Shown piece by piece: positions 6,107 to 47,410 of a stretch of 64,000 nucleotides of DNA; position 1 is the stretch's first letter, and each line of letters begins with the position of its first letter. The notes beneath the pieces are model-generated. The model was not told the DNA's origin, searched no databases, and worked only from the letters and a program-made list of their open reading frames with translations. Source of the DNA: Candidatus Poribacteria bacterium (lineage in GTDB: Bacteria; Poribacteria; WGA-4E; WGA-3G); the NCBI GenBank assembly GCA_965205015.1, contig OZ242029.1, positions 3,328,001-3,392,000 of the forward strand, written 5' to 3'. Made by a program: the position numbers and the translations under genes.

Positions 6107-7492
6107 CGAAGGGAAACAGATAGTATGGGGACGCTTCACGTCCCAGGAGACCGATATTGGGGGGCACAAACACAACGTGCGCTCCAAAATTTTAAAATTG
6201 GTGAAGAACGTTTGCCGCGTGCCGCGATATGGGCACTCGGTACCATTAAACAGGCGGTTGCGCACGTCAACGCAGACCTCGGTTTGCTCGAAAATCGGCT
6301 TGCTGAAGCCATCAGCGGTGCAGCACAAGAAGTTATTGATGGGACATTAGACGATCACTTTCCACTCCGTATTTGGCAGACGGGTAGTGGCACCCAAACA
6401 AACATGAATGTCAATGAAGTCATCTCGAATCGGGCAATTGAGATGCTTGGCGGTGAGTTGGGAAGTAAAGACCCGATCCATCCGAACGACCACGTCAACA
6501 AATCCCAATCCACAAATGATGTCTTTCCAACTGCTATTCATTTGGCGATGGTCCGACAGATTCAAGAGCATCTCTTACCGCGCCTGAGTTCTCTGCAAAC
6601 GGCATTTGCAGAGAAGGTGTCTGCCTTTGCGGAGATTGTTAAGATCGGACGAACCCATCTGATGGATGCGACACCCCTCACGCTTGGGCAGGAATTTAGT
6701 GCTTACACGCAACAACTCGTTGCCGCAGAACAACGTATCAATGCTTCGCTGCCGCATCTTTCTGAACTTCCAATTGGTGGAACCGCTGTTGGGACGGGGC
6801 TAAATACACATCCGGACTATACGGCGCGGGTTGTGGCAAAGTTATCAGAAACAACAGGTTATGAACTCAGGCGCGCATCGAACGCATTTGAGGCACTCGC
6901 GTGTCGAGATGCCGTTGTGAGTGCAAGCGGTGCCTTGAAAACACTGGCGGTGGCTCTATTTAAGATTGCAAACGATATCCGGTGGCTCGCTTCGGGACCT
7001 CGGTGTGGACTCGGTGAATTGCAGTTACCTGAGATGGAACCCGGAAGCTCGATTATGCCGGGAAAAGTGAATCCAACGCAATGTGAAGCCGTCACGATGG
7101 TGTGCGCACAGGTGATGGGAAATGATACAACCTTGGCATTTGCCGGGGCAAATGGGGCATTGCAATTGAATGTGTTTATGCCTGTGATTGCCTATAACGC
7201 TTTACAATCTATACAACTCCTTGGCGATGCGTGTGCGTCATTCCGTGAGAATTGTGTCGAAAGTATCGTGCCAAATACTGAAACAATAGAGCGGCATCTC
7301 TCGGAATCATTGATGCTTGTGACTGCATTGACCCCGCATATTGGATATGATAAGGCGGCAAAGGTTGCGCAATATGCGCATGAACACGGAAGCACACTAC
7401 GCGAGGCGGCTATTGCCCTTGAGGTGCTGACAGGTGAGGCGTTTGATGAACTTGTTTTGCCGGGGGAAATGACGCGCCCGAATTTGCAATAA
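6104..7492 (+). CDS. fumC: Fumarate hydratase class II
   Basis: Signature [15 protein letters not shown], plus [12 protein letters not shown] and [12 protein letters not shown]. Confidence 0.97.
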
Positions 7493-7597: not shown

Positions 7598-10500
7598 TTA
7601 ATCATCATCACCAGCTTCGCCTATTTCTGGCTCAGTGGCGGATACCTCTAAGTTTTGGAAACTGGAGAATCCACTTCCAGCGGGTATAAGTCTACCGAGA
7701 ATAACGTTTTCCTTCAGCCCGAAGAGTCTATCGGTCTGTCCACTAACAGCTGCATCCGTTAGCACCTTCGTTGTTTGCTGGAAGGAGGCGGCTGAGATGA
7801 AGCTATCTGTACTTAAGGCTGCTTTACTGATGCTTTGAAGAATCGGTTCACCCGTTGCAGGCGTGCCGCCTGTTTCTTCAATCTCACTATTAACGCGTTC
7901 AAATTGCTTGCGTTGCACTTCATCGTTGGGATAGAAGTTTGTGTCGCCCGGCTCAGTGATGAGAATTTTGGTTAACATCTGTCGGACGATTGCCTCAACG
8001 TGTTTATCGTTGATAATTCCCTTGCCGTAAACTTTCTGGACTTCATCGACGAGATATGACCAGACCGCCTCTTCACCCTCAACCGATACACCTTCAATAG
8101 TCGTACGCCCGATACTCAAAATATCGTGTGGATTGAGATAACCATCGGTGAGGGGTTCACCGGCATTCACCCAATCGTCTTCAGCGACGCGTCGTTTCTC
8201 GTCAGGTATCTGGTAGAGACGACTCTGATAGCCTTCGTGCTCAATGCGGTAGGCAGGGATCCCTGATTTTGTGCCAGCGGATTGGACGTAGCCTTCAATT
8301 TCAGCGATTTCTGCGGCTTCATCGCGTTTTGGACGGCGCGCTTCAAACAATTCAGTGACACGTGGGATACCCACAACAATGTCAAGGTTCGCTGTTCTTT
8401 CATGGAGTTCTGCCAGCGTTTCTCCCTTCTGAATGCTATCACCCTCTGTTAGAGAGAAGGAGTAACCTGTAGGAATGACATGGGGCACCCGATTTCCATC
8501 CGATGTTTCGACTTCAATACGCATCCGCAACGACAATTCATCGACCTCGAATCCGGGGTACCGTTTCACTGCCTGATCGTACGCTTCTTCAGACAATTCG
8601 TCGCCAAGGGCGTACTTGAAATTGGGATGATGGACCTCGGTGATGGTATGGGTCACCTTCTGATTCGCTTTCTCAAGGGCACGGAATTTCTTTGAAGATA
8701 GAATCGTCCCAACCTCGAGCGGTTCATCAACATCCCGGCTATCTTCCGTGATCCGGTAAACTAACTCAGTATCGAACCCTTTGAATTTGCGGTTATACGT
8801 CTTATATTCTTCTTCACTCAGTTCAGTACCAACCTCCAAGTTCAATTCAGAGTGATGGACACTAACGACCTTGTAGAGTCCCTTGACTTTCTCCGGTAAC
8901 GAAGCATCCGTCTTACGGAGTGCCTTATACTCGATCTCGGTGAGACGTTGACCGACACTTAACGCTGTCGTCCCATCTTCGATGTTTGTCACTTCGTACT
9001 GACGGGTAACTTCAAAGCCTTTGTAATTTCGGCGGTTTGCGGATGATTCCTTTTGTGTCAAAAGACCGTCAACTTGTAGTGGACAGTCAGGATGATTAAC
9101 CGATGTGATACGGTACATGCGTTCTGCGGCAAAGCCACCCGCGGTGCTCTTACTTTCCGAAGTGGTGAACCCAGGGTAGCGTTCATCGGACTGCTTTTTC
9201 TCATTTTCAGTAAGCAGATCTCCCGGTTTGAGATCGCAGTCCGGATGAAGTGCCTGTGTTACACGGTGGCGTAGGGGCGGTGCATCAAAACCTGGAAACC
9301 GTTTGTGTAAACGGGGTAAAGCTGTCTCGCTCAATTCTTCGCCTTCTGTAAGGGGGCATTCGGGATGATACACAACCGTCACATAGTGCTGTTCAACATC
9401 CTGTTTTTCAACTTTAAATGCGCGTTCAAGGTGTTGATACTCTGTGCGGGCATCCTCGTACTCACGGGCCGTTAACGTCTGATCGACTGCAAAATCAGCA
9501 ACGTCTGTATGTACAACGTAAACGGGTTTTGCCTCAATCTCAAATGGATTCAGCAACGGAGCGATTGCCTCTGGGGCCACTTCGTCTCCTACCTTAAATC
9601 CGAAATCTTTGCTGGTCCCCTTATCTATCTCGGTTATACAGTACACACGATTAAAGCTTGCATCCCGTCCAGAGGGATTCGCAGTATCGGGGCCATCAGC
9701 GGATCCATTCGTCCGATCAGAAGAAGCAGTACCTGCAGCTGCTGTAAGGTTTTCAATAGCAATACGCTCGCCTGTTTCTGCATCCAAGTAATGCCATTCT
9801 CCACTGACGCCTTGCCGGACCTCTGCTCTCAATTGCTCTATCTCTGCTTCAGTAAGTTGGGTGTCAACACGCAATGGAAGCTTAGGGTGTTGCACTCGCG
9901 TTACTCGGTATTTTGGGGTCACAAATCGTTGGAAGCCATATTCCATCTGTGCCTTGACGTATTCTGCCTGAGACAGTCTGTCCCCTACCTTCAGATCACA
10001 GTCGCTATCCAAAACCTCTGTGACTTGATACAGCCATGTTTTCGTATCAAAGCCTTTATAGCGTTCCGTGTTTTCCATGTACTGCTTCTCACTGAGCAGT
10101 TCATCTTCACGCAATTGACAATGCGGATGATTAATTTTCTGGACCTTATATGCTAGACCATCGAGGTTGCCTCTGTTTTCGGTAGCGACCCAGAGTTCGC
10201 CCTCCTCTTCGACCGTCCGACCGGGTTGGAAGTCTCGGAAGTACACGGTGCCGCTGGCTTTAGACAAAATTCTGCGCTGACGCGCTTCTGAAACATCTTC
10301 AACGGCACCACCGGTGTGGAACGTCCGCATGGTGAGCTGCGTCCCCGGTTCACCGATAGACTGTGCTGCAATGATGCCGACAGCTTCACCAACGTTGACG
10401 AGGTCATTCGTCGTTAAATCGTTACCGTAACATTTTGCACAAATGCCATCGTCGGTTTGGCACGTGAGTACAGATCGCACTTTTACCACGCGTATGCCAA

Positions 10501-13297
10501 GTGTGTCAATCTGGTTCGCCATCTCCGCCGATATGATAGTACCGGACGGAACAAGCGTATCTCCGTTCTCTGGGTGGAGAATGTCTTCAGCGGCGGTGCG
10601 TCCGTTAATTTTGAAAGCAAGGTCGCCTCCCTCTGTCGCAAACTTTTGAATGCTATTGAGAGTGCCGCAGTCTTCAGCAGTGACACGAACATCTTGTGCC
10701 ACATCTACCAGTTTTCGAGTCAGGTAACCGGATGCGGCGGTTTTCATCGCCGTATCCACCAAACCTTTACGGGATCCGTAGGTAGAGTTAAAGTAGTCAA
10801 GGACCTCCAGACCGTCACGATACGAGGTGGTGATCGGCGGAATGAGAATTTCACCGCTCTGCTTCGCTTTCAATCCGATAACGGCACTGATTTGCATAAA
10901 TGGATTCTTCCGTGCGCGTGCGCCACTATCTGCCATGATATGTACCGGACTGAAGCCCTCTACTGTTTTGTTGCGCACCTCTGACCCATCGGGATCGATG
11001 TATGGGTGAATCTTTCGAGGATCGGCGCGCTCAACAAGAGATGTCTCTAAACGGGGCAAATCATCGAACATCTCATCCTCAACCTCTTTGAGCGCAGCCA
11101 ACCAGATGCGAATCTGCTCGTTTTCATGTTCTTCGCGCTCGGTCGCTGTGACGTTGCTAAGGAGTTCGTCAATATCTGCCTTTGCTTTGTTCACCAAGGC
11201 ATCACGATTGTCAGGGGTGATGTAATCCCGGATGCCGGGCGAAATACCGCTCAGCGTTGCATACTCGAATGCGAGTTTCTGGACTTTCTCAAGCACTTCA
11301 GTCGTGACACGTGTGCCGAGTTCGTTAAAACACCGATGGATCAGATCAGATAATTCCCTGCCGTCAGCTTCGGCATTGAAGAATGGAAGTTGCTGCTCGG
11401 AGTTTTCATCCTCCCACTCTAAACCCGATGGCAGTACCTCGTTAAAGATAACTCTGCCCACTGTTGTTAGAATGGGTTCAGGGGTTTTCTGGCCATCCCC
11501 GTTGGATGGGAAGAAGAGTTGGATGCTGTCGTGCAGCTTAAGTCGACCCGCTGCATGAGCGGTGAGGACCTCTTCTGGGTGGGTGTAGCGACGATGAGAC
11601 CACGACTTTTCACTGAGCTTCTTAAAAGTATCAGGATCCCTTGTTGTGTAGGCATCATGGAGAAGTACTGCATCCGCTGCGTGCCCTGGCAACACCTTTG
11701 TCAGGAAACTGGGTCCGAGTACCATGTCAAGCTCCGGAACAGCAACAGGATCACCGTGTGAGGGCTTGAGAATGTTATGACTGCTGAGCATGAGGAGTTT
11801 CGCTTCAGCTTGTGCTTCCACAGTAAGTGGGACGTGAACTGCCATCTGGTCCCCGTCAAAATCGGCGTTAAACGCTTTACAGACGAGTGGCGGAATTCTG
11901 ATGGACTTGCCCTCTACTAAGACAGGCAAAAATGCCTGAATGCCGAGTCTGTGCAAAGTTGGTGGACGGTTGAGTAAAACTGGATGATCCGCAATGACTT
12001 CCTCTACGACTTCCCAGACAGGAGAATCCGAATCAACGTGTTCAGCAATATGCTTCGCCCGCTTAATAGTCTGTGTATGGCCATACGCTTGAAGTCGCTC
12101 AATGATGAACGGCTTAAACAACTCCACAGCCATTCGTTTGGGGATCCCACACTGATGCAGCCCCAATTCGGGCCCAACGACGATGACGCTACGTCCAGAG
12201 TAGTCAACCCGCTTACCGAGCAGATTCTGACGGAACCTTCCGATTTTACCTTTGAGAACATCGGCAAGAGATTTCAGCGGACGGTTACCCGGACCGGTAA
12301 CACGCCTACCGTGCCGTCCGTTGTCGAAGAATGCGTCGACTGCCTCCTGTAACATCCGTTTCTCGTTACGGAGGATGACTTCTGGAGAGCGGAGTTGTAT
12401 CAATTTACGCAATCGGTTGTTCCGATTAATAACACGGCGATACAAATCGTTCAGGTCGCTGGTAGCAAAGCGTCCACCTTCAAGAGGGACGAGAGGGCGC
12501 AAATCTGGCGGGATGACAGGAATAACATCCAGAATCATCCACTCGGGCCGCTGTCCGATTTCTGCAAAGTCAGCCATCTGTTTCAGCTGCTTGGCAATCT
12601 TCAACTTTTTCTGCTGGCTCGTTGTTTGCTCTAATTCTTCGGTTAATTTCTCTCTTTCCGTTTCGAGGTCGATATTACTCAGAATCTCGCGAACGACTTC
12701 AGCGCCGGTGCCAGCCCGAAATCCGCCCCAGTACTTATTACTGTTTTCTATGTACTCGATCTCGTTTAATACCTGTCCACGTTCAAGCGGACACTCTGGA
12801 TCCGTCACTTCAACGACAATGAACCCCTCAAAATAGAGCACACGCTCAACATCACGTGAAGAGAGTTCACAAAAAGTGCCGATGCGAGAAGGAATTCCTT
12901 TGAAGTACCATATATGCGATACAGGGGCGGCAAGTTGGATATATCCGAGCCGATCTCTGCGAACCCGCTGTTGTGTGATTTCAACACCACAGCGGTCACA
13001 TATCATCCCTTTATGTTTAATCCGTTTATACTTGCCACAGTTACACTCCCAGTCCTTTTGGGGTCCGAAGATAGCCTCACAAAAGAGGCCCTCCGGTTCA
13101 GGACGGAAGGAACGGTAGTTAATAGTCTCCGCCTTCTTAACCTCGCCGCAACTACAGGTCCCTTTCTCGGGGCAGATAAAAGGTTCATCCGCTGCCTGGG
13201 CGGGATTCCGACGTTTGCAACTGGTTTTCTTCGACTCATCTTTTATCTGATCAGGCGAGGCTATTTTTATGGAGATGCTGTCAAATGCCGTGTTCAT
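7598..13297 (-). CDS. rpoC: DNA-directed RNA polymerase beta' subunit with a ~640-aa trigger-loop insertion
   Basis: NADFDGD catalytic motif, Zn ribbon CNC...CDRC, GKRVDYSGRSVI, TQLTMRTFH and GLKENVILG; 1899 aa. Confidence 0.98.
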   Translation of the reverse strand: MNTAFDSISIKIASPDQIKDESKKTSCKRRNPAQAADEPFICPEKGTCSCGEVKKAETINYRSFRPEPEGLFCEAIFGPQKDWECNCGKYKRIKHKGMICDRCGVEITQQRVRRDRLGYIQLAAPVSHIWYFKGIPSRIGTFCELSSRDVERVLYFEGFIVVEVTDPECPLERGQVLNEIEYIENSNKYWGGFRAGTGAEVVREILSNIDLETEREKLTEELEQTTSQQKKLKIAKQLKQMADFAEIGQRPEWMILDVIPVIPPDLRPLVPLEGGRFATSDLNDLYRRVINRNNRLRKLIQLRSPEVILRNEKRMLQEAVDAFFDNGRHGRRVTGPGNRPLKSLADVLKGKIGRFRQNLLGKRVDYSGRSVIVVGPELGLHQCGIPKRMAVELFKPFIIERLQAYGHTQTIKRAKHIAEHVDSDSPVWEVVEEVIADHPVLLNRPPTLHRLGIQAFLPVLVEGKSIRIPPLVCKAFNADFDGDQMAVHVPLTVEAQAEAKLLMLSSHNILKPSHGDPVAVPELDMVLGPSFLTKVLPGHAADAVLLHDAYTTRDPDTFKKLSEKSWSHRRYTHPEEVLTAHAAGRLKLHDSIQLFFPSNGDGQKTPEPILTTVGRVIFNEVLPSGLEWEDENSEQQLPFFNAEADGRELSDLIHRCFNELGTRVTTEVLEKVQKLAFEYATLSGISPGIRDYITPDNRDALVNKAKADIDELLSNVTATEREEHENEQIRIWLAALKEVEDEMFDDLPRLETSLVERADPRKIHPYIDPDGSEVRNKTVEGFSPVHIMADSGARARKNPFMQISAVIGLKAKQSGEILIPPITTSYRDGLEVLDYFNSTYGSRKGLVDTAMKTAASGYLTRKLVDVAQDVRVTAEDCGTLNSIQKFATEGGDLAFKINGRTAAEDILHPENGDTLVPSGTIISAEMANQIDTLGIRVVKVRSVLTCQTDDGICAKCYGNDLTTNDLVNVGEAVGIIAAQSIGEPGTQLTMRTFHTGGAVEDVSEARQRRILSKASGTVYFRDFQPGRTVEEEGELWVATENRGNLDGLAYKVQKINHPHCQLREDELLSEKQYMENTERYKGFDTKTWLYQVTEVLDSDCDLKVGDRLSQAEYVKAQMEYGFQRFVTPKYRVTRVQHPKLPLRVDTQLTEAEIEQLRAEVRQGVSGEWHYLDAETGERIAIENLTAAAGTASSDRTNGSADGPDTANPSGRDASFNRVYCITEIDKGTSKDFGFKVGDEVAPEAIAPLLNPFEIEAKPVYVVHTDVADFAVDQTLTAREYEDARTEYQHLERAFKVEKQDVEQHYVTVVYHPECPLTEGEELSETALPRLHKRFPGFDAPPLRHRVTQALHPDCDLKPGDLLTENEKKQSDERYPGFTTSESKSTAGGFAAERMYRITSVNHPDCPLQVDGLLTQKESSANRRNYKGFEVTRQYEVTNIEDGTTALSVGQRLTEIEYKALRKTDASLPEKVKGLYKVVSVHHSELNLEVGTELSEEEYKTYNRKFKGFDTELVYRITEDSRDVDEPLEVGTILSSKKFRALEKANQKVTHTITEVHHPNFKYALGDELSEEAYDQAVKRYPGFEVDELSLRMRIEVETSDGNRVPHVIPTGYSFSLTEGDSIQKGETLAELHERTANLDIVVGIPRVTELFEARRPKRDEAAEIAEIEGYVQSAGTKSGIPAYRIEHEGYQSRLYQIPDEKRRVAEDDWVNAGEPLTDGYLNPHDILSIGRTTIEGVSVEGEEAVWSYLVDEVQKVYGKGIINDKHVEAIVRQMLTKILITEPGDTNFYPNDEVQRKQFERVNSEIEETGGTPATGEPILQSISKAALSTDSFISAASFQQTTKVLTDAAVSGQTDRLFGLKENVILGRLIPAGSGFSSFQNLEVSATEPEIGEAGDDD

Positions 13298-13416: not shown

Positions 13417-16400
13417 CTATTCTTCATCCTTATCGAGGGATACATGAAGTCCAAGGGTTTGGAGTTCGCGGACCAAGACTTTGAACGATTCCGGTGTACC
13501 GGGCGGGTCAGGGTTTAACCCTTTCACAACCGACTCGTAAATCTCTCTCCTGCCGAGAACATCATCTGATTTGAGCGTGAGCATTTCTTGGAGTGTATGG
13601 GCTGCACCATAAGCCTCCAATGCCCAGACCTCCATCTCACCGAGTCGTTGGCCCCCGTGTTGCGCCTTGCCCCCTAACGGCTGCTGTGTAACAAGCGAAT
13701 AAGGTCCCGTTGAGCGGGCATGCATTTTATCAGCAACAAGGTGGTTCAGCTTGAGGAAATAGACGTAACCCACCGTTACTTCTTGGGCAAACGGTTCACC
13801 CGTCCTACCATCAAAGAGGATGCTCTTACCGGTTTGTTTACTGCGTTCGGGAAGCGTGGTCTTACCAAGTTCTTTAAAGATTTCTTCTTCTGTCGCGCCA
13901 TCAAATACAGGGGATTCCACTTGGATACCGAGTTCATGGCACGCCCATCCGAGGTGAATTTCCAAAATCTGACCGACATTCATTCGAGAGGGCACCCCTA
14001 ACGGGTTCAGGACCAATTCAACCGGTGTCCCATCTGGGAGATAGGGCATGTCCTCAGCGGGCAAAATTTTGGCAACGACACCTTTGTTGCCATAACGGCC
14101 CGCCATCTTATCACCGACGGAAATCGGACGCTTACTTGCGACATAAACTTTGACGCGTTTAATGACGCCTGGTTTCAGTTCGTCCCCCATCTCTAACTGT
14201 TGAAGTGCCCGTTCTTTTTCCTCAGTATAAGTGGTTATCCTGCCTTGTGCCATTTCTTCAACACGTTGAATATGCTCTCTGGCATCGACCTCGGTTACAT
14301 GAATATCTGAAAAAGTCAAGCTACATGATTTACGCGCTTGTTGGTAGTTATCATCAGAAACATATTCTCCAACAGACAATGTACACTCTGGGTCGAAAAC
14401 AGCCGTAATGTGCCAGACCTTGTCGGATTTCAAATCCTTGGTTGTCTGATTGAGTGATGCCAGTTCGTCCGGCGTCAATCGCTGTCCGGCTGTTATAGGA
14501 CGCGCAGGGAAATCTCTGGATACTCGCAAAAAATCGGTGTCGGAAAGTTCTTGACCTTCGGTCAAAGGGCACTCGGGATCGAAAACTTCCTTAATTTGCC
14601 AAAACAGATCGGCTTGTAAACCGGGGTATGCCTGACTGGCGTGTGTCCATTCTTCTTCGTTCAGTCTCTGGGTCTCAACGACAGGGCATCCAGTTGCTTC
14701 AATCTGTTCGTTAACCCCAGTCTCAAATTCGGAACGCCCACACGGTTGCAACACATCTACGAGTTCATAGAAATCATAGTTATCGGGTTCTGACTCACCC
14801 TCGGTTACCAATACACCAAATCGTGCGCCTGCTGCAGTAAGCATTTCCGTTAGGTGCTCGGAATTAGACCCGTTTTCCGTGTCCTCACCGGCACAAACAG
14901 CAATGGCAATCACACTGTTATCGTAACCCTGAAGTACAACATCGGCCTCTTCTGTAGGAAAGGTTTGTTCCCCTGATTCCTTAGGTTCCGTTTCTTGGAA
15001 GAATGGTGCTGTACTCCCCAAGGTCGGTTTGCACACTTCGCTAAAGTAGTCTTGCACGGTTGAAGCATTCGCGGTATGGACCACAATAGTCGGAATAGGT
15101 TCAGGTACATCCGTTACCCGATAACCTGCTTCAGCGGTAAAGGCTTCGGCGTTTGTATCTTCGGTTACCAGATGGTACGCATCTGCAGTGAAACCGGAAA
15201 GATAAACGTCCAGAACCTCAGCCGTCAGAATATCGCCAGCGTTAGCGAAGGGTTCAGTCTCACCTTTAGTACCCGTAACCGTGTAAAGCGGATCAGCGAG
15301 TTGGCATCCGATGAGCGTTTTGCGAATTTCTTCGATTTTTCGGCGACGGATAGAAGCGATCTGCTCACGCGAAGTCTCTTCAATCTCCTTGCGTTTCGAT
15401 TCATATCGCAAATTGTCAGCCATTGATAACCCTGAGTCGCCTTGTGTCCAACCTCCGCGACGGGAGGTCGTATCCGGCTTACGGGAGAATACTTTTACGT
15501 CAATGACGACCCCTTCAACGCCGGGACGTACATAAGTGGAGGCATCCCTGACTTCTTTGACTTTTTCACCAAAGATTGCCCGTAGGAGTTTCTCTTCTGG
15601 ACCATATTCGCTTTCACCTTTCGGTGTAATCTTTCCGACGAGGATGCTGCCTGCCCCTACAACGCTCCCAACGCGGATAATGCCCTCTTCGTCGAGTTGT
15701 GTGAGACGCTGCTCGCTAACGTTCGGGATATCACGGGTTATTTCCTCTGGACCTACTTTCGTTTCACGTGCTTCCACTTCAAATTCTTCAATGTGGATAG
15801 AGGTAAAGGTGTCCTCTTTAATGAGCGTTTCACTTATCAGGATAGAGTCTTCATAATTGTGGCCGCCCCACGGCATATAAGCACATAACACATTCCGTCC
15901 GAGAGCGAGTTCACCATCTTCTGTAGAGGTGCCATCCACAATAACCTGTCCGGCTTCAACTGTATCGCCTACCGCAACGATAGGACGCTGATGGATACAG
16001 GTGCCGCTATTACTGCGTTTGAAAGTCTGGAGTTTGTAAACATCGTAGCCCATTTCGCTGAACGTATTCTCACCTTTGTCGTGGTGAAGTGTTTCACCGG
16101 TATAGATGAGAATCTCATCGGCAGAAACACTCGTGACGGTGCCGGCTCGCTGAGCGGTAATGAGCGCACCCGAATACAGTGCCGCGTGTGCTTCCATGCC
16201 TGTTCCGACGAGCGGGGCTTCTGGACGAATAAGCGGTACAGCCTGACGTTGGTGATTCGCACCCATCAAAGCACGGTTTGCGTCCTCGTGTTCCAGGAAT
16301 GGAACGAGTGCTGCAGAAATTCCGACGATTTGCTGCGGGGAAACACCGATATAGTTTACTTTCTCCATCGGGAGTGACAGCACATCCTCGCCACTGCGTA

Positions 16401-18711
16401 CCGGTAGCGCCTGCTCAGATGCATCACCATTTCCGGTTTGTTCAGCATCCGGTGGGAGAGGCTTCGCGGCGATATACGCAGTATCCTCGCTATCTGCTGT
16501 GAGATATTCCACCGGGCCCAGCACTGGTCCCTCCTCACCCGCCTCAACCGTATGATAAGGCGTTTCTATAAAGCCGTAAGGGTTTATCCGTCCGTAACAC
16601 GCCAAAGAAACGATAAGCCCGATGGACGGTCCCTCAGGTGTCTCCAAGGGGCAGACACGTCCATAGTGCGTTGGATGTACGTCCCGAACAGCTGCCGTTG
16701 CCCTATCTCGGTGAAGTCCCCCTGGACCAATCGCTGAGATACGGCGTTTATGCGTCAGTTCATCCAACGGATTAATCTGTTGCATAAACTGGGACAGTTG
16801 GTTCGATCCAAAGAATTCTCGGAGTGCCATCATCAACGGTTTCGGATTTATGAGTGAAGACGGGACGACCTTTGCAATATCGTTGTTGGTACTCAAGCGT
16901 TCGCGCGTGGTTCTGCGAATCTGGAATAAACCCATTCGGAACTGGTTTTCGAGGAGTTCACCGATAACACGCACGCGACGATTACCGAGGTGGTCCAGAT
17001 CGTCTTTCGGTTTATGTCCATTATGGACATCAAGCAGGTAAGCTATAGTCGCAGCAATATCTTCGCGACGTTGCGTTCGGAGCGTTTCTTCGGGGAAATT
17101 TCCATAAGTCGGCACATAATCAATTTTCTGATCCGGTTTCCAGCCAGGCACATCATCCGGGCACAACCCGAAATATTGACAGGTTTCGTTGAATTTTCGA
17201 TTAAGTTTGTATCGTCCAACGACCCCTAAATCGTATCGGTGCGCGTCAAAGAGCAACCATGAAAGATGTTTACGAGCGTTCTCTGTACTCGCGGGATCTC
17301 CGGGTCTCAGCGTGCGGAAAATCTCAACGAGTGCGGCATCTTGTAACGCGCCCTTTTGATCGGAGGGGACTTCATAGTCGGCTTGTCGGTCGCGCTCCAA
17401 CGTATTACGCAAGGATTGGATATGCTGGCAATCTTCCGCATCTAGGACTGTAAGTGACTCAACGCCAGCCTCACTGAGACGTTCCAATTCCGTTTCGGTG
17501 AGCAGCGTATTCGCTGTGAGGAGCACTTCGTCAGCTTTTGGATTGGTAACGTCTTCAGCTTCTGGATCGATAACGTCTTCAGCGCAGACCCTATCAACCC
17601 ATTCCTGATTGTCTGGAGACGAAAGCTGTTCAGCTGTGAACGCTTTACGTCCGTAGCGGGCACGCGCCTCTTCGTATTCTGAATTCGTTAGGACTTGTCC
17701 CGGAATGAGTTCGCATCCACTATTGTGGGTATCAATCACACGCCGAAAAAGTTCAGTTTCGAAACCCTTCCATTTTCTACGCAGATTCGTACGCTTCTTA
17801 TATGTGAGTTCTTCTCCAATCTCCAGTGGGCAGTCCGCATCGGTTACCTCTGTAACCCGGTAACACCTCTCTACCTCAAGGTCAGGGTAGTCTTTATTGG
17901 CTTGTCGAAAGTCCGCGGCATCCAGCACATCACCGGGTTTGACTTGCTTTGCGGGTCCTTCTACATGGGTAACCTGCCATCCGGCAAGCACGAGACGTTC
18001 CGTCTTGGCGTAAAGTTTCAGGATATCGGCGTCCGACTCCCAACCCAATGCGCGGAGCAGTACGGTAGCAGGCAGTTTTCTGCGTTTGTCAATGCGTACA
18101 TAAATCTGATCTTTAGTGTCTATCTCAAATTCGACCCATGCCCCTCGATACGGAATAATTTGGGCAGTCGGGGTCCGCCGTCCAGTCGGTAATGCCTTTT
18201 CAAGAAAAATAACACCGGGTGAACGCTGTAGTTGACTTACAATGACACGTTCGCTACCATTGACAATGAAGCTGCCATTTTCGGTCATTAAAGGGACTTC
18301 GCCGAGGTATACATCGGATTCTCGGATATCCACAACGTGAGGTTCATCTGCGTCCGAGTCTGCCTGCCGCTGGACAAGCATAATACGGGCAGTAAGAGAT
18401 ACCTGATACGTTACACCGCGCGCGACACACTCTTGGAGCGTATATTTCGGTTCACCAAGGCTATAATTGACAAATTCGAGACTATTAACTTCCGAAAAAT
18501 CGCGAATACCGCTCTTTTCTCCTGTCTGAAATACTTCCTTAAACACCGCTTGGAGGCCAGCATCCGAACGTTCATTAAGTGGGACCTTTCGTTGTAAGAA
18601 GGCATCATAGGCGAGTTTCTGGGTCTCTATGAGGTTCGGGAGCGGGGTTTGAACCTGCGTTTTGGCAAAAGTTTTTCTCTTCTTATTTTTCGGGCTGAGT
18701 TTTTTGTTCAC
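13417..18711 (-). CDS. rpoB: DNA-directed RNA polymerase beta subunit with large insertions
   Basis: [41 protein letters not shown] and [12 protein letters not shown]. Probable GTG start at 18711 (SD GGGAGA), which lies downstream of the promoter. Confidence 0.98.
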
Positions 18712-18837
18712 TGAATGAAGTCTCCCTACTTTGCGGTGGTTACGCAGTTTACAAATAGACTTTTGAAAAAACCTGAAAAAACCTGCTTTCTTAACTACTT
18801 TTTCCAATCTTAATATGGTAATATAGCATAACAGAAT

Positions 18838-18866
18838 ATTGTACATTATTTTTCGCAAAATGTCAA
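18838..18866 (-). promoter_or_regulatory. Sigma-70-type promoter of rpoBC
   Basis: TTGACA-17 nt-TACAAT on the minus strand. Confidence 0.7.
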
Positions 18867-18962: not shown

Positions 18963-19514
18963 ATGGGAACAATCACGACACGACTGCCGGTTAAAGCGAT
19001 CATCGGTGTGCTCACAACGGACCCTGACCTCCTGCCAACAGTTTATACAGAACTGGTACATCGCCTTGGATCGATTGATTACACAAGTGAATTGATGCCT
19101 TTTACAAGTACAGCCTACTACGAGGCTGAGATGGGACCAAACATCCAACGACAATTTATCAGTTTTGAAAGACTTATCGATGCCGGTACGCTGGCAGAAA
19201 TGAAATTGTTCACAAATAGCGTTGAGCAAACTTTTGCTGTAAGAAAGTCCGAAACAGACGCACGGCGAGTCAATTTGGACGCGGGTTACATCTGTTTAGC
19301 AAAACTGGTGCTTGCGTCAACGAAAGATCATGCACATCGTATCTATCTCAGCGACGGTATCTACGCCGAAATCACACTCCGTTTCTATCGCAAAACGTTC
19401 CGACCCTGGGAGTGGAGTTATCCGGACTACCGATTACCAACATATATCGCTATTTTTAATCACATTCGCAGCATCTATAGAAATCAATTAATGACGTCGA
19501 CTACCTCCGACTGA
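18963..19514 (+). CDS. DUF4416 family protein
   Basis: YYEAEMG, RRVNLDAGY, VLASTKDHAHRIYL..GIYAE and WSYPDY motifs; SD GGAGG before ATG 18963. Confidence 0.8.
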   Translation: MGTITTRLPVKAIIGVLTTDPDLLPTVYTELVHRLGSIDYTSELMPFTSTAYYEAEMGPNIQRQFISFERLIDAGTLAEMKLFTNSVEQTFAVRKSETDARRVNLDAGYICLAKLVLASTKDHAHRIYLSDGIYAEITLRFYRKTFRPWEWSYPDYRLPTYIAIFNHIRSIYRNQLMTSTTSD

Positions 19515-19928
19515 AGCGTGTTGAGATACCGCGCGGAGATCGCCGTACATCTTTCGGACTTGTATCAACAGCCCCTGTTGCTCATACCAAGAAACATAAT
19601 CTCCTTCAGTTCCCTATGTCTCGATACAGGGGTGTGCAGAGTTCTGAAGTGCTTTGAGGTGTTCTGACCCGTTTAATAGTGTTTTCTCCTGTGTTTATGT
19701 AGGATACACAGGATATTTAGAATCGAAATCACGGTCTATCGTGTATCGTGCGTTTATTTCCTGTCAAGTAGGCGGCAGACACATTGCCGAGAGGCAATGC
19801 TTGACATGTCTGCCAACACGATATAATTATTATACCACAAAAACTGAACGAAAGTCAAATTAATTATTAAAAGAAAGGGCGGTTTCCTTCTCACCCTGAA
19901 GGGTGAGATTTCCAAATCGCGAATGTTG
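19496..19928 (+). mobile_element. Non-autonomous IS200/IS605-superfamily element of IscB/HEARO type (omega-RNA-like, no ORF)
   Basis: 5' end GTCGACTACCTCCGACTGAAG; internal CAGTTCCC, GTTTAATAG and ACATTGCCGAGAGG motifs; terminal hairpin TTTCCTTCTCACCC-TGAA-GGGTGAGATTTCC. Excision restores an ATGA gene overlap. Confidence 0.7.
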
Positions 19929-21110
19929 ATGAAGAAACTTCTTAAAAAGATGCCAGGTATTGAGAACCTGTGCGACACAAAATCGTTGATCTTTATTGTT
20001 CTCACGGGTGTATTTTTGGCATGTTCTCTATCCAGCGTAAATGCTGAATTGACAGACTTAGAGGCGCGTGCGCGTGCGCGCGACATCGGCATCCAAATAG
20101 GAACCCTTCCAACAGGCATACACAATGCCATCACTGATGTAGCGGGTGTGAAAGTCGGACACATTACGCTAAACGAAGGCGATTCAATTCGTACGGGTGT
20201 TACCGCTATCCTTCCAAGTGATGATATTTGGACAGCACGCCTCTTCGGTGCGGCGCATGTCATTCACGGTAATGGTGAAGCAACCGGCATTGCCCGCATC
20301 AATCAAGCTGGATGGATTGAATCTCCCATTTTGCTTACAAATACACTCAGTGTCGGGGCGGTTCATGACGGTGTTGTGCGTTACATTGTAAAACGGTATC
20401 CAGATAACAATATTGTGCTGCCAATTGTGGCGGAGTGCTACGATGGTGGTTTGAACGATATCAGCGGACTCCACGTCACAGCACAGCATGCGATTGAAGC
20501 GATTGAGAACGCCACCGATGGTCTCGTAACCGAAGGAAGCGTTGGTGCCGGCACGGGCATGCGATGCTATGGGTTTAAAGCCGGTATCGGTACCGCCTCC
20601 CGCGTCCTACCTGAAGAACGCGGTGGATGGACAGTCGGTGTCCTCGTTAATTCCAATGGCGGTCGTCGTTCGCAGCTGCGAGTTGGTGGTGTCCCGGTCG
20701 GCAAAGAAATTAGCGGATCCCCACCGAAACCGGGTAGAGATGGCTCGTTCATTATTGTGATCGCAACAGATGCCCCGTTGACGCATCGCCAATTGAAACA
20801 GTTAGCGGTTCGCGCGACACATGGACTTGCGCGTACAGGCACACCGAGTACGGACGGGAGTGGAGAATTCGTCATCGCATTTTCTACCGCGAACATTTTC
20901 CCAAGTGGTACCGAAACCGGCACTTTTGAAATCCAAATGCTCGTCAATCGGCGTTTGAGTTCACTCTTTCAAGCTGTCATCGAAGCCACAGAAGAGGCTA
21001 TCATCAATTCCATGACAATGGCGACGACAACCACGGGACGCAATGGCAGAACGATGTACGCGATTCCGTTGGTGGCGTTGCAAAAGGTGATGAAAGCCTA
21101 TGGACATTGA
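19929..21110 (+). CDS. DmpA/P1 family (S58) aminopeptidase, secreted
   Basis: NAITDVAGVKVGH, EGSVGAGTGM, K.GIGTASR and the DG|SFII autocleavage site; N-terminal signal-like segment. Confidence 0.9.
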   Translation: MKKLLKKMPGIENLCDTKSLIFIVLTGVFLACSLSSVNAELTDLEARARARDIGIQIGTLPTGIHNAITDVAGVKVGHITLNEGDSIRTGVTAILPSDDIWTARLFGAAHVIHGNGEATGIARINQAGWIESPILLTNTLSVGAVHDGVVRYIVKRYPDNNIVLPIVAECYDGGLNDISGLHVTAQHAIEAIENATDGLVTEGSVGAGTGMRCYGFKAGIGTASRVLPEERGGWTVGVLVNSNGGRRSQLRVGGVPVGKEISGSPPKPGRDGSFIIVIATDAPLTHRQLKQLAVRATHGLARTGTPSTDGSGEFVIAFSTANIFPSGTETGTFEIQMLVNRRLSSLFQAVIEATEEAIINSMTMATTTTGRNGRTMYAIPLVALQKVMKAYGH

Positions 21111-45674: not shown

Positions 45675-45702
45675 ATATACATTACAATTAAATAAACGAA
45701 CG

Positions 45703-45860
45703 ATTCAGGTGCCGAATTACGGAGAATAGGGAAGCGCGGTGAGAATCCGCCACGGCCCCGCCACTGTGAACGATCGCAAGTATCCGCTGAAAAAACCACT
45801 GTCAAATCACTGATGGGAAGGTCCAGCGGAAGGATCGGAAGTCAGGAGACCTGCCTGAAT
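45703..45860 (+). ncRNA. Cobalamin riboswitch
   Basis: ATTCAGGTG...AATAGGGAA.CGCGGTGAGAATCCGC...GCCCCCGCCACTGTG...CCACTG...TGGGAAGG...AAGTCAGGAGACCTGCCTGAAT (B12 box and closing stem). Confidence 0.93.
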
Positions 45861-46000
45861 TGTGTTTCACGCATCTGCTTTCGCGGGAAAGCGGTGGAAC
45901 GGAACACAGTATCCTGTCAAACGAAAAAGAAATTCTCACATAAGAGATGGAATTCTCTCACACAGTTACAGGATATGCCTTACACAGAGTGTCGCTTCCG

Positions 46001-46054: not shown

Positions 46055-47410
46055 ATGAACAAAGTTGTAGCGGCGCGGCTCGCAAGCGCGTCTCAAAAAG
46101 TCGCTCGTCGGCACTTCTCGTGTTATTCACTCCTACTTATCGGTGCGATCCTTTTCACACTCCTCGTGCGTCCCACCTTTGGACAAACAGAGGCCCCAAA
46201 CGCGGCAGTTGTCATAAATGCCTTAACGCATCCCGATCTGGGCATCACCGCCTCGCTCTCACTCATCAATCTGACGGAGCCTAATGAGAGACGGGCTGTT
46301 GACAATGAAATACTCCGCATCGGCTTTGATCCGATATTACGGCGGCGCGCAATTGGTCTCTCTATTTACGGGCATCTCGCCTATGTCACGAGTTTCAACT
46401 TGCCCATCACTGGCGAAACAAGTTCCGGCGACAACATCTATATTATTAACTTGGAAGATCGAGAGTTTGTTGGCGAAATTCCAATCCAAGCGGGCACAAC
46501 GCCGCAGCAAATCGCCTTGGTCAGTGATCAGAAGCTATATGTCACCTGTGCCGCAACGCATGAGGTACACGTCGTTGACATTCCGAATCGCAATGTAATA
46601 AAGGTCCTCACCGGTTCCTTCAACAAACCGACCGGTATCACACGCCTCAATGGCAAAGCCTACGTCGCGAACCCCGCATGGGAGTGGGATCCGGTTGCAC
46701 GGAAAACGACCTATTATGATAGCAGTGTCACAGTGATTGATACGCAGACAGACATCATATTAAAATCCATTCCGGTGCCGACAAATGCAGGGGCGATCAT
46801 CAACGACAACGAATCCACCGTTATTGTCAAGACAACGGGTAATTACAACGATGTCCTGGGGCATCTCGTTCTGATTGACGCAACTACCGATGAGATTATC
46901 GAAACGGTTAAGCTCGGTTTCACGCCTGGTGCCTCTGCCCTTAATTCAGAAAAACAGTTGTTTATCCAAGGCAGTTGGCAAAACCCCGGCTTACTCATCT
47001 ACGATATTGCAGCACAAAACTGGATCCGTGACGAAGATGACACGATCACCAACTTCAGTAACAATGCAGATACACCTATCAGTGGTGGACTGACTTTTGC
47101 ACCCGATGGAAATCTCTATATCATCCAACCCGACTGGTCGGGCGGTGGACAGGATTTCGTTCGCGTCATGGACGTTGCCGATGCCTCTCTCCTGCGATCC
47201 TATCACGTTGGACCCGCTGGCTCTATTTTGGGGTTCGCAACGATTACACCGCGACGTGAAGACATCAACAATGATGGGTTCATCAACATAAAAGATATGA
47301 TAATCGCAGGACGTTTTCTCGGCGACGAAGGTCCCGGGATACGTGCCGATGTCAATGGAGACGAAGTGGTGAATATTCTTGACTTGGTGCTGATCGATCA
47401 GGGACGCTAA
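46055..47410 (+). CDS. Secreted YncE/YVTN-type beta-propeller with C-terminal dockerin-like repeat; candidate corrinoid-binding protein
   Basis: Signal-like N-terminus, KLYVT/KAYVAN and VTVIDTQTD repeats, C-terminal DINNDGFINIKD...ADVNGDEVVNILDLV; first gene after the B12 riboswitch. Confidence 0.75.
   Translation: MNKVVAARLASASQKVARRHFSCYSLLLIGAILFTLLVRPTFGQTEAPNAAVVINALTHPDLGITASLSLINLTEPNERRAVDNEILRIGFDPILRRRAIGLSIYGHLAYVTSFNLPITGETSSGDNIYIINLEDREFVGEIPIQAGTTPQQIALVSDQKLYVTCAATHEVHVVDIPNRNVIKVLTGSFNKPTGITRLNGKAYVANPAWEWDPVARKTTYYDSSVTVIDTQTDIILKSIPVPTNAGAIINDNESTVIVKTTGNYNDVLGHLVLIDATTDEIIETVKLGFTPGASALNSEKQLFIQGSWQNPGLLIYDIAAQNWIRDEDDTITNFSNNADTPISGGLTFAPDGNLYIIQPDWSGGGQDFVRVMDVADASLLRSYHVGPAGSILGFATITPRREDINNDGFINIKDMIIAGRFLGDEGPGIRADVNGDEVVNILDLVLIDQGR

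Follow-up and report, generated by a model that had tools for sequence, protein, structure and literature searches.

Introduction

Transposons of the IS200/IS605 family move by way of folded single-stranded ends. Cas12 descends from their TnpB protein, which is also a compact tool for genome editing and has been studied mainly with regard to its omega RNA; this RNA lies together with its guide at the 3' (right) end of the element. In IS200, a stem-loop in the 5' untranslated region (UTR) hides the ribosome site. The 5' UTR of the IS200 tnpA gene of Salmonella has been reported to be processed into regulatory RNAs (PMC5435999). Here we analyze the segment that separates a DUF4416 gene from the peptidase gene dmpA in a 64-kb stretch of a Candidatus Poribacteria genome (assembly GCA_965205015.1, contig OZ242029.1, positions 3,328,001 to 3,392,000), referred to below as the window and numbered from its first nucleotide. 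In a first-pass annotation this segment had been taken for a stand-alone IscB/HEARO-type omega RNA. It is instead an ordinary dead transposon stub that carries a conserved RNA which is out of the ordinary: the minus strand of 19491-19928 very probably represents the immobile 5' stub of a tnpB-only (IS1341-like) transposon of the IS200/IS605 family, equipped with a promoter and a conserved leader RNA (Table 1).

Table 1. Window coordinates of the features at the DUF4416/dmpA junction (MFE, minimum free energy; TAM, target-adjacent motif)
Feature	Position	Strand	Evidence or remark
Structured 5' leader RNA, ~90 nt	19733..19823	-	Model R1 match, covariation, MFE fold
Leader, closing helix P1	19823-19817 with 19750-19744, or alternatively with the tandem copy 19743-19737	-	
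Leader, long hairpin	19814-19807 with 19781-19774, and 19799-19793 with 19788-19782	-	
Leader, short hairpin	19772-19770 with 19762-19760	-	
Leader, 7-bp kissing helix	19806-19800 (bulge) with 19768-19762 (hairpin loop)	-	
TTCAT target (TAM-like) motif	19929..19933	-	Directly 5' of the left end
Outer left end	19859..19928	-	Aligns with left ends of full-length copies
Sigma-70-like promoter	19829..19858	-	Scan score 11 of 12, extended TG
Decayed 5' tnpB, ~82 codons	19491..19732	-	blastx and blastn
DUF4416 gene	18963-19514	+	Pfam domain ends at residue 172 of 183
Rewritten DUF4416 tail	19482..19514	+	Alignment with empty-site relatives
Peptidase S58 (DmpA-like) gene dmpA	19929..21110	+	Pfam PF03576, E 3.5e-113

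Anatomy of the inserted segment

The limits of the insertion were defined by comparison with the 80 best loci for the DUF4416 protein, all of which are in Poribacteria assemblies. The two genes overlap in 66 of these loci, mostly by 4 to 35 nt, with a gap from the DUF4416 stop to the dmpA start of -17 nt in 36 loci, -4 nt in 22, -35 nt in four, and between -23 and -14 nt in three (the value of -1476 nt obtained for L022, which is counted among the 66, is an artefact of an open reading frame (ORF) walk that passed the stop). The sequence inserted in the window is common only to its three closest relatives, L001, L002, and L003, whose DUF4416 proteins are 91-93% identical to that of the window. 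L002 carries the entire insert at 78% identity, and L001 and L003 have no equivalent of 19491-19725. In the nearest empty sites, which read ...CAATTA GAAA ATG..., the DUF4416 stop lies 17 nt inside dmpA; alignment with empty sites places the insert at 19491-19928, in exchange for approximately 4 nt (GAAA or GAGG in the empty sites), and revealed no target duplication. The first-pass annotation had proposed an IS200/IS605-superfamily insertion with a subterminal hairpin and without target duplication, placed exactly at the DUF4416/dmpA junction, which rewrote the DUF4416 tail and uncoupled the two genes, and all of this is borne out by the comparison. The ATGA overlap proposed with it for the empty site does not apply to the nearest sites; a 4-nt overlap is found in the 22 more distant loci.

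On the minus strand, the segment consists of a left end with a subterminal hairpin next to the flanking TTCAT, followed by the promoter, the structured leader, and approximately 82 dead tnpB codons that abut DUF4416. The TTCAT flank, which on the plus strand reads ATGAA, the dmpA start codon plus two bases, adjoins the left end in seven loci of the closest complete genome, G001 (L125, L129, L131, L137, L141, L142, and L145, the last being the ortholog of the window locus), and is replaced by ATCAT at L128 of the same genome. It is also present in empty sites whose dmpA begins with ATGAAG, e.g., L019 and L027. Because TTCAT precedes the left ends and pre-exists in empty sites, it is taken to be a TAM-like target motif that contains the dmpA start codon; the ATGA previously described as a 3' TAM is a part of this motif read on the other strand.

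The left-end hairpin starts 20 nt from the terminus and spans 19889-19908, with TCTCACCC at 19889-19896, a TGAA loop, and GGGTGAGA at 19901-19908. Its counterpart in full-length copies covaries, has a TTTAG or TTCA loop, and is followed by a GGAAAA..CCGCCC block. The outer left end of the window copy is 79% identical to those of L001-L003, which is near the neutral level. The promoter is composed of the -35 box TTGACT (19858-19853), an 18-nt spacer, and the TG-extended -10 box TATAAT (19834-19829), with a predicted transcription start at approximately 19822 on the minus strand, and both boxes are kept across the leader-family alignment.

Beyond the leader, positions 19718 to 19491 align with TnpB residues 6-82 (49% identity over 77 residues, E = 3.6e-14 by blastx) and are colinear with full-length copies in blastn. 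The remnant contains two in-frame stops and is cut off at the DUF4416 junction after residue 82; the former ATG is now GTG (19732-19730), and the alignment suggests that one nucleotide has been lost within codons 2-5. Identity to L002 is 78%, and L001 and L003 lack the remnant. This decayed N terminus was overlooked when the segment was said to hold no credible ORF; Pfam searches with its 49- and 69-aa plus-strand ORFs and its 169-aa minus-strand ORF gave no match. The ends of full elements, defined from near-identical paralogs, comprise a TCACC or TTCAT flank followed by the left end and, on the other side, a right-end hairpin that resembles that of the left end, into which tnpB runs and which is followed by GTTGAC. 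The right-end hairpin/GTTGAC terminus is absent from the window insert, and, since the omega RNA and guide lie at the missing right end, the stub has neither. What the window has retained is the left end and the 5' leader, rather than the omega RNA that had been annotated.

Fold and covariation of the leader RNA

The leader forms a three-way junction composed of the closing helix P1, a bulged long hairpin, and a short hairpin whose loop pairs with the bulge. The stem of the long hairpin had been named in the first-pass annotation as GGCAGACA (19774-19781), CATTGCC, GAGA, GGCAATG, and TGTCTGCC (19807-19814), together with the left-end hairpin and the stem pairs CCCCTGT (19572-19578)/ACAGGGG (19626-19632) and TCCTGTGT (19687-19694)/ACACAGGA (19706-19713), all of which were found in the sequence. 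The 433-nt stretch delimited there, superseded by the limits given above, does fold more stably than its shuffles, with z scores of -3.5 on the plus strand and -2.5 on the minus strand. The 94-nt core 19730-19823 scored -4.26 on the minus strand and -4.14 on the plus strand. When the window copy is folded to its MFE structure, P1 forms with the first 7-mer copy, and the other helices are reproduced.

Covariation was assessed in an alignment of 28 distinct copies in the tnpB sense, from which L097 and L105 had been dropped as duplicates. Paired cells amount to 96.5% compared to 83% in shuffles, 18 of the 32 pairs show changes at both partners (141 cells), and the covariation score is 0.474 compared to 0.198. 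In four of five measures none of 500 shuffles reached the observed value, and in the fifth, further pair types, 120 of 500 did. When the partners were slid by 1-3 columns, pairing fell to 30-42%. Compensatory changes were observed in six of the seven pairs of the kissing helix. The 5'-most 7-mer covaries with two tandem copies of its complement, the two registers pair about equally well, and the tandem 7-mers end 4 nt before the AUG. A conserved covarying fold between promoter and start codon is what would be expected of a cis-regulatory leader. The wobble count, 36 G:U versus 8 A:C, favours the tnpB-sense strand and, together with the promoter and the tnpB remnant, puts the function on the minus strand instead of the plus strand assumed in the first-pass annotation.

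Pairing with the other end of the element was not evident, as predicted duplexes of the leader with the last 290 nt (the omega region) of 21 full elements had energies no better than those of shuffles (z of -2.7 to +1.0). Within the elements, no consistent further occurrence of the element-specific 7-mer was found.

Distribution of the leader and its linkage to tnpB

Between 4 and 13 places in each of the five related genomes searched match positions 19698-19860 of the window. Among the 29 dispersed loci examined (L094 being left out by a coordinate filter), 22 have an ORF of 365-443 aa right beside the motif, oriented opposite to the window's plus strand; the encoded proteins are identified as TnpB because they contain OrfB_IS605 and Cas12f1-like TNB (Zn-ribbon) domains. 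A covariance model built from the leader alignment, R1, has a single match in the window (123.6 bits, E = 1.5e-28), 126 matches in the five related genomes (23, 14, 51, 11, and 27), and one match or more in 76 of the 150 phylum genomes sampled, in which up to 24 candidates per genome were scored. In G001, 21 of the 23 leader matches are followed by an intact tnpB ORF; the remaining two are the ortholog of the window locus and L143. The leader precedes 21 of the 24 TNB-domain genes of this genome, and the corresponding TnpB proteins form 10 clusters that are mutually 23-57% identical. The presence of a covarying pseudoknotted leader on so large a share of tnpB genes, and in half of the sampled genomes, points to an extra layer of control over TnpB expression. 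The sister copies had been expected to lie beside iscB; they lie beside tnpB, and linkage to iscB was seen in none of the loci examined.

When the entire window was searched against Rfam at gathering scores, the sole matches were a cobalamin riboswitch and a tRNA. At E<=10, the region 19300-20100 gave four snoRNA/sRNA matches of 11-17 bits, compared to gathering scores of 45-88, which were treated as noise; the HEARO match that the omega RNA reading called for appeared neither at gathering scores nor at E<=10. The eight full-length sister loci searched at E<=0.1 had no match in Rfam. A pattern scan of IMG/VR for viral spread of the leader yielded seven stretches, none of which passed the model.

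Several individual loci deserve mention. L143, which has no tnpB, carries a triple short repeat at the position of the tandem 7-mer. The TnpB-type genes of G001 without a leader match are located at C1:4348308, 4275455, and 5502919. A tnpA-leader-tnpB operon was considered and rejected, as the only case in which the leader adjoins tnpA, L150, is a tnpB element inserted in a truncated tnpA: at L150:766-1290, an element with left-end hairpin, promoter, and leader cuts a Y1 tnpA at approximately residue 104, so that the transposons are nested. Other leaders without tnpB were found on the minus strand at L022:5797-5913, L028:5756-5872, L033:5639-5756, and L033:4291-4407. These leaders of L022, L028, and L033, which represent three further species, are located just upstream of DUF4416, pointing away from it and toward rpoB, and those of L022 and L028 are nearly identical despite differing flanks. 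The site is a second place where an orphan leader persists, here on the rpoB-sense strand.

Conservation of the orphan leader

The orphan leader of the window (19733-19822) is 98.9%, 94.4%, and 97.8% identical to its orthologs in L002, L001, and L003, respectively, and the promoter is 89-95% identical; identity at the third codon positions of both flanking genes is 75-84%. Leader and promoter together are identical at 123, 120, and 121 of 127 positions in the three orthologs, compared to 75-77% identity at pooled neutral sites (Fisher p = 7e-9, 6e-7, and 8e-8). The conservation ends at the former tnpB start codon, and the flanks on either side of the conserved block have diverged to 78-79%. 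It is probable that real selection acts on the orphan leader. The retention of leader and promoter at an orthologous site in four species after the loss of tnpB would, if true, be a clear case of reuse of a transposon regulatory RNA.

In two RNA libraries, contigs extend over the leader and stop at 19822 and 19812, whereas a DNA contig runs on. The first of them spans 19566-19822; the second, which represents an L001-type allele, joins 19022-19490 to 19726-19812 and continues into adapter-like letters. The two contigs hint weakly at a transcript end close to the predicted start. In the RNA contigs of runs X18 and X20, positions such as 19862-19935 are not covered, and no inference was drawn from this.

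History and proposed function

A full element inserted 3' of the TTCAT containing the dmpA start codon, in an ancestor shared by the window organism and L001-L003, and thereby split two previously overlapping genes. Later deletions removed most of tnpB and the entire right end, including the omega scaffold and guide, and L001 and L003 went on to lose the tnpB remnant too, such that the left-end hairpin, the element's own promoter, and the leader RNA of approximately 90 nt are the parts that survive. Trans mobilisation of full copies is plausible, given that each of the five related genomes searched has 4-6 matches to Y1 TnpA.

In intact elements, the leader may gate the translation of tnpB. 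The 5' strand of P1 could pair with either of the two identical tandem 7-mers, the second of which ends just before the AUG, and one P1 register would free the start region while the other would bury it; the junction and the kissing helix would then serve as the sensing part. Such a translational switch on tnpB is our tentative reading of the fold, put forward at somewhat less than even confidence. If promoter and leader are kept by selection without tnpB, they should now act for the host or against the transposon. The orphan could be transcribed antisense to DUF4416, act in trans or as a decoy RNA, or supply transcription signals, and would persist since the RNA itself, or transcription toward DUF4416 and rpoB, is useful. 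A more far-reaching reading is rather doubtful, namely that the leader is a new riboswitch-like class in which some ligand or protein switches tnpB in most TnpB elements of the phylum and that the orphans have been domesticated as promoter-equipped regulatory RNAs; possible roles of the orphans would then include DUF4416 antisense, a decoy for a TnpB-licensing factor, and an extra transcript start upstream of rpoB.

Alternative explanations

Several points weigh against a selected leader RNA that switches tnpB. The sense strand of the leader RNA is the 'top' DNA strand of IS200/IS605 elements, and for this reason the G:U excess does not exclude a fold of single-stranded DNA. The orthologous conservation rests on four related genomes, and it could partly reflect a plus-strand dmpA promoter overlapping the leader, or gene conversion. 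The RNA-library contigs are unstranded and DNA may be present in such libraries, so the transcript, its start, and its strand are predictions. The copy searches covered the 64-kb window and the related genomes. For the proposed switch, no ligand, protein partner, or Shine-Dalgarno sequence has been identified, and the tandem 7-mer could serve otherwise.

It is unlikely that the block is kept for plus-strand signals of dmpA, i.e., a TTGACA/TATAAT-like promoter and 5' UTR, and not for the RNA fold. A promoter-like site does exist on the plus strand at 19801-19830, and dmpA no longer overlaps DUF4416. However, the TTGACA of this site is a kissing-helix strand that varies within the family and is spaced 15 nt from TATAAT, and promoter-like sites are no more numerous in the region than in shuffles. 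The constrained block of 128 nt is far longer than a promoter and coincides with the leader and the minus-strand promoter.

During transposition, the fold might act in the form of single-stranded DNA and not of RNA, extending the left end that TnpA or host factors recognise. This would be in keeping with the folded single-stranded ends of the family, with the location of the fold within approximately 200 nt of the left terminus, and with wobble statistics that cannot tell RNA from top-strand DNA. It is improbable in view of the position of the fold downstream of a conserved promoter and adjoining the start codon, of a right end that has a simple hairpin only, of the 94-99% conservation of an orphan that cannot transpose, and of the cover by RNA-library contigs. 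A neutral relic, the apparent conservation of which stems from mutational coldness or from gene conversion by active copies, has a similarly low probability: the 11-51 model matches per related genome are possible donors, but the four orthologs share one helix variant at covarying positions where family members of the same genome differ, and divergence sets in at either edge of the block.

A non-autonomous TnpB OMEGA element on the minus strand, resembling a palindrome-associated transposable element (PATE) with both ends, an omega RNA, and a guide in the flank left of 19491, is very improbable. The left end, hairpin, and TAM-like TTCAT are intact, and Y1 TnpA is encoded in the related genomes; nevertheless, TnpB homology is unbroken to 19491 and is directly followed by DUF4416, which leaves no room for a right-end hairpin and GTTGAC. 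Neither blastn nor model R1 found a second copy of the segment within the window. The same stub was seen only at the orthologous site, and it does not retain both ends as a miniature inverted-repeat transposable element (MITE) or PATE does.

The stand-alone IscB/HEARO-type omega RNA on the plus strand, with a guide from the 5' flank that targets the empty ATGA allele in trans, is refuted and keeps practically no probability, since the structured segment, its insertion without target duplication, and the adjoining ATGA that had suggested it stand against the absent Rfam match (both here and in the full-length sisters), the tnpB beside the sister copies, the covariation and wobble pairs on the opposite strand, and a 5' half that is a tnpB pseudogene, and since, with the strand opposite and the right end missing, the proposed guide has no scaffold to serve. 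For annotation, an attractive but wrong call of a guide RNA is hereby corrected.

Relation to described systems

The family corresponds to tnpB-only IS200/IS605 elements (IS1341-type, or TnpB/omega systems like that of ISDra2) in the OrfB_IS605 and TNB domains encoded by the sister copies, the similar subterminal hairpins at both ends of full copies, the conserved 5-nt motif 5' of the left end, the lack of target duplication, and a tnpB that in full copies runs into the right-end hairpin, the expected place of the omega RNA. The window copy differs from these elements as a stub with a dead tnpB and without the right end and omega region, and the family as a whole differs by its pseudoknotted leader of approximately 90 nt between promoter and start codon. 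The leader and the IscB omega RNA (HEARO) are both structured non-coding RNAs of the IS200/IS605 superfamily that lie upstream of a nuclease gene; the leader differs in the lack of a covariance-model match and in its tnpB partner, and it cannot take a guide from the flank, because its 5' end lies within the element, behind the element's own promoter.

The tnpA 5' UTR of IS200 is likewise a transposon 5' UTR of the same superfamily with activity at the RNA level. The likeness is one of description and not of sequence or model, and that UTR belongs to tnpA; the leader is distinguished by its three-way junction, kissing helix, and duplicated P1 strand. Purine-type riboswitch aptamers combine a three-way junction with loop-loop contacts and a switching P1. 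The leader resembles them in its closing P1, its two hairpins paired by a tertiary contact, and the two partners of P1 near the start codon, whereas it has no riboswitch homology in Rfam and no known ligand, belongs to a transposon nuclease gene, and occurs in tens of copies per genome.

The leader family is large and apparently undescribed. A 'Poribacteria-1' candidate motif, probably part of the supplement of Weinberg 2017, could be the same fold, in which case the family would already be on record as a candidate without assigned function; the literature search gave no hit for this name. Neither Rfam 15 nor the literature searched yielded a description of such a tnpB 5' leader, and no paper linking Poribacteria and TnpB was found. 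As far as the respective texts were accessible, the main text of Weinberg 2017 (PMC5737381) mentions neither Poribacteria nor orfB, PMC10691335 contains nothing on a tnpB leader, and term searches of two 2026 preprints were likewise negative for it.

Flanking genes and other features of the window

Homology of DUF4416 to its relatives stops at 19490 in the alignment with empty sites. Beyond this point, transposon-derived sequence supplies a new tail, MTSTTSD, and a stop codon (19512-19514), and the replaced residues fall outside the Pfam domain. The start of dmpA is the counterpart of the MKKLL or MQKLL starts in relatives according to the alignment, and it is now located 414 nt downstream of the DUF4416 stop, in contrast to the overlap in most relatives.

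At seven further loci (L036, L038, L065, L072, L074, L050, and L080), 80-268 nt are found between DUF4416 and dmpA, at approximately 6530-6820; these inserts match neither the window insert nor the leader model. The DUF4416/dmpA junction seems to be prone to independent insertions. In one RNA-library contig (run X18, with a loose end at window position 19489), DUF4416 continues straight into a dmpA-like start; the contig appears to derive from a relative with an empty site, both genes being on one contig.

Elsewhere in the window, two very long ORFs of 1899 and 1813 aa are located on the minus strand at 7598-13297 and 13417-18858, and the translation of the latter resembles an RNA polymerase beta subunit that contains large insertions. 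The cobalamin riboswitch is located at 45690-45872 on the plus strand (113.6 bits), with ORFs starting downstream at 46055.

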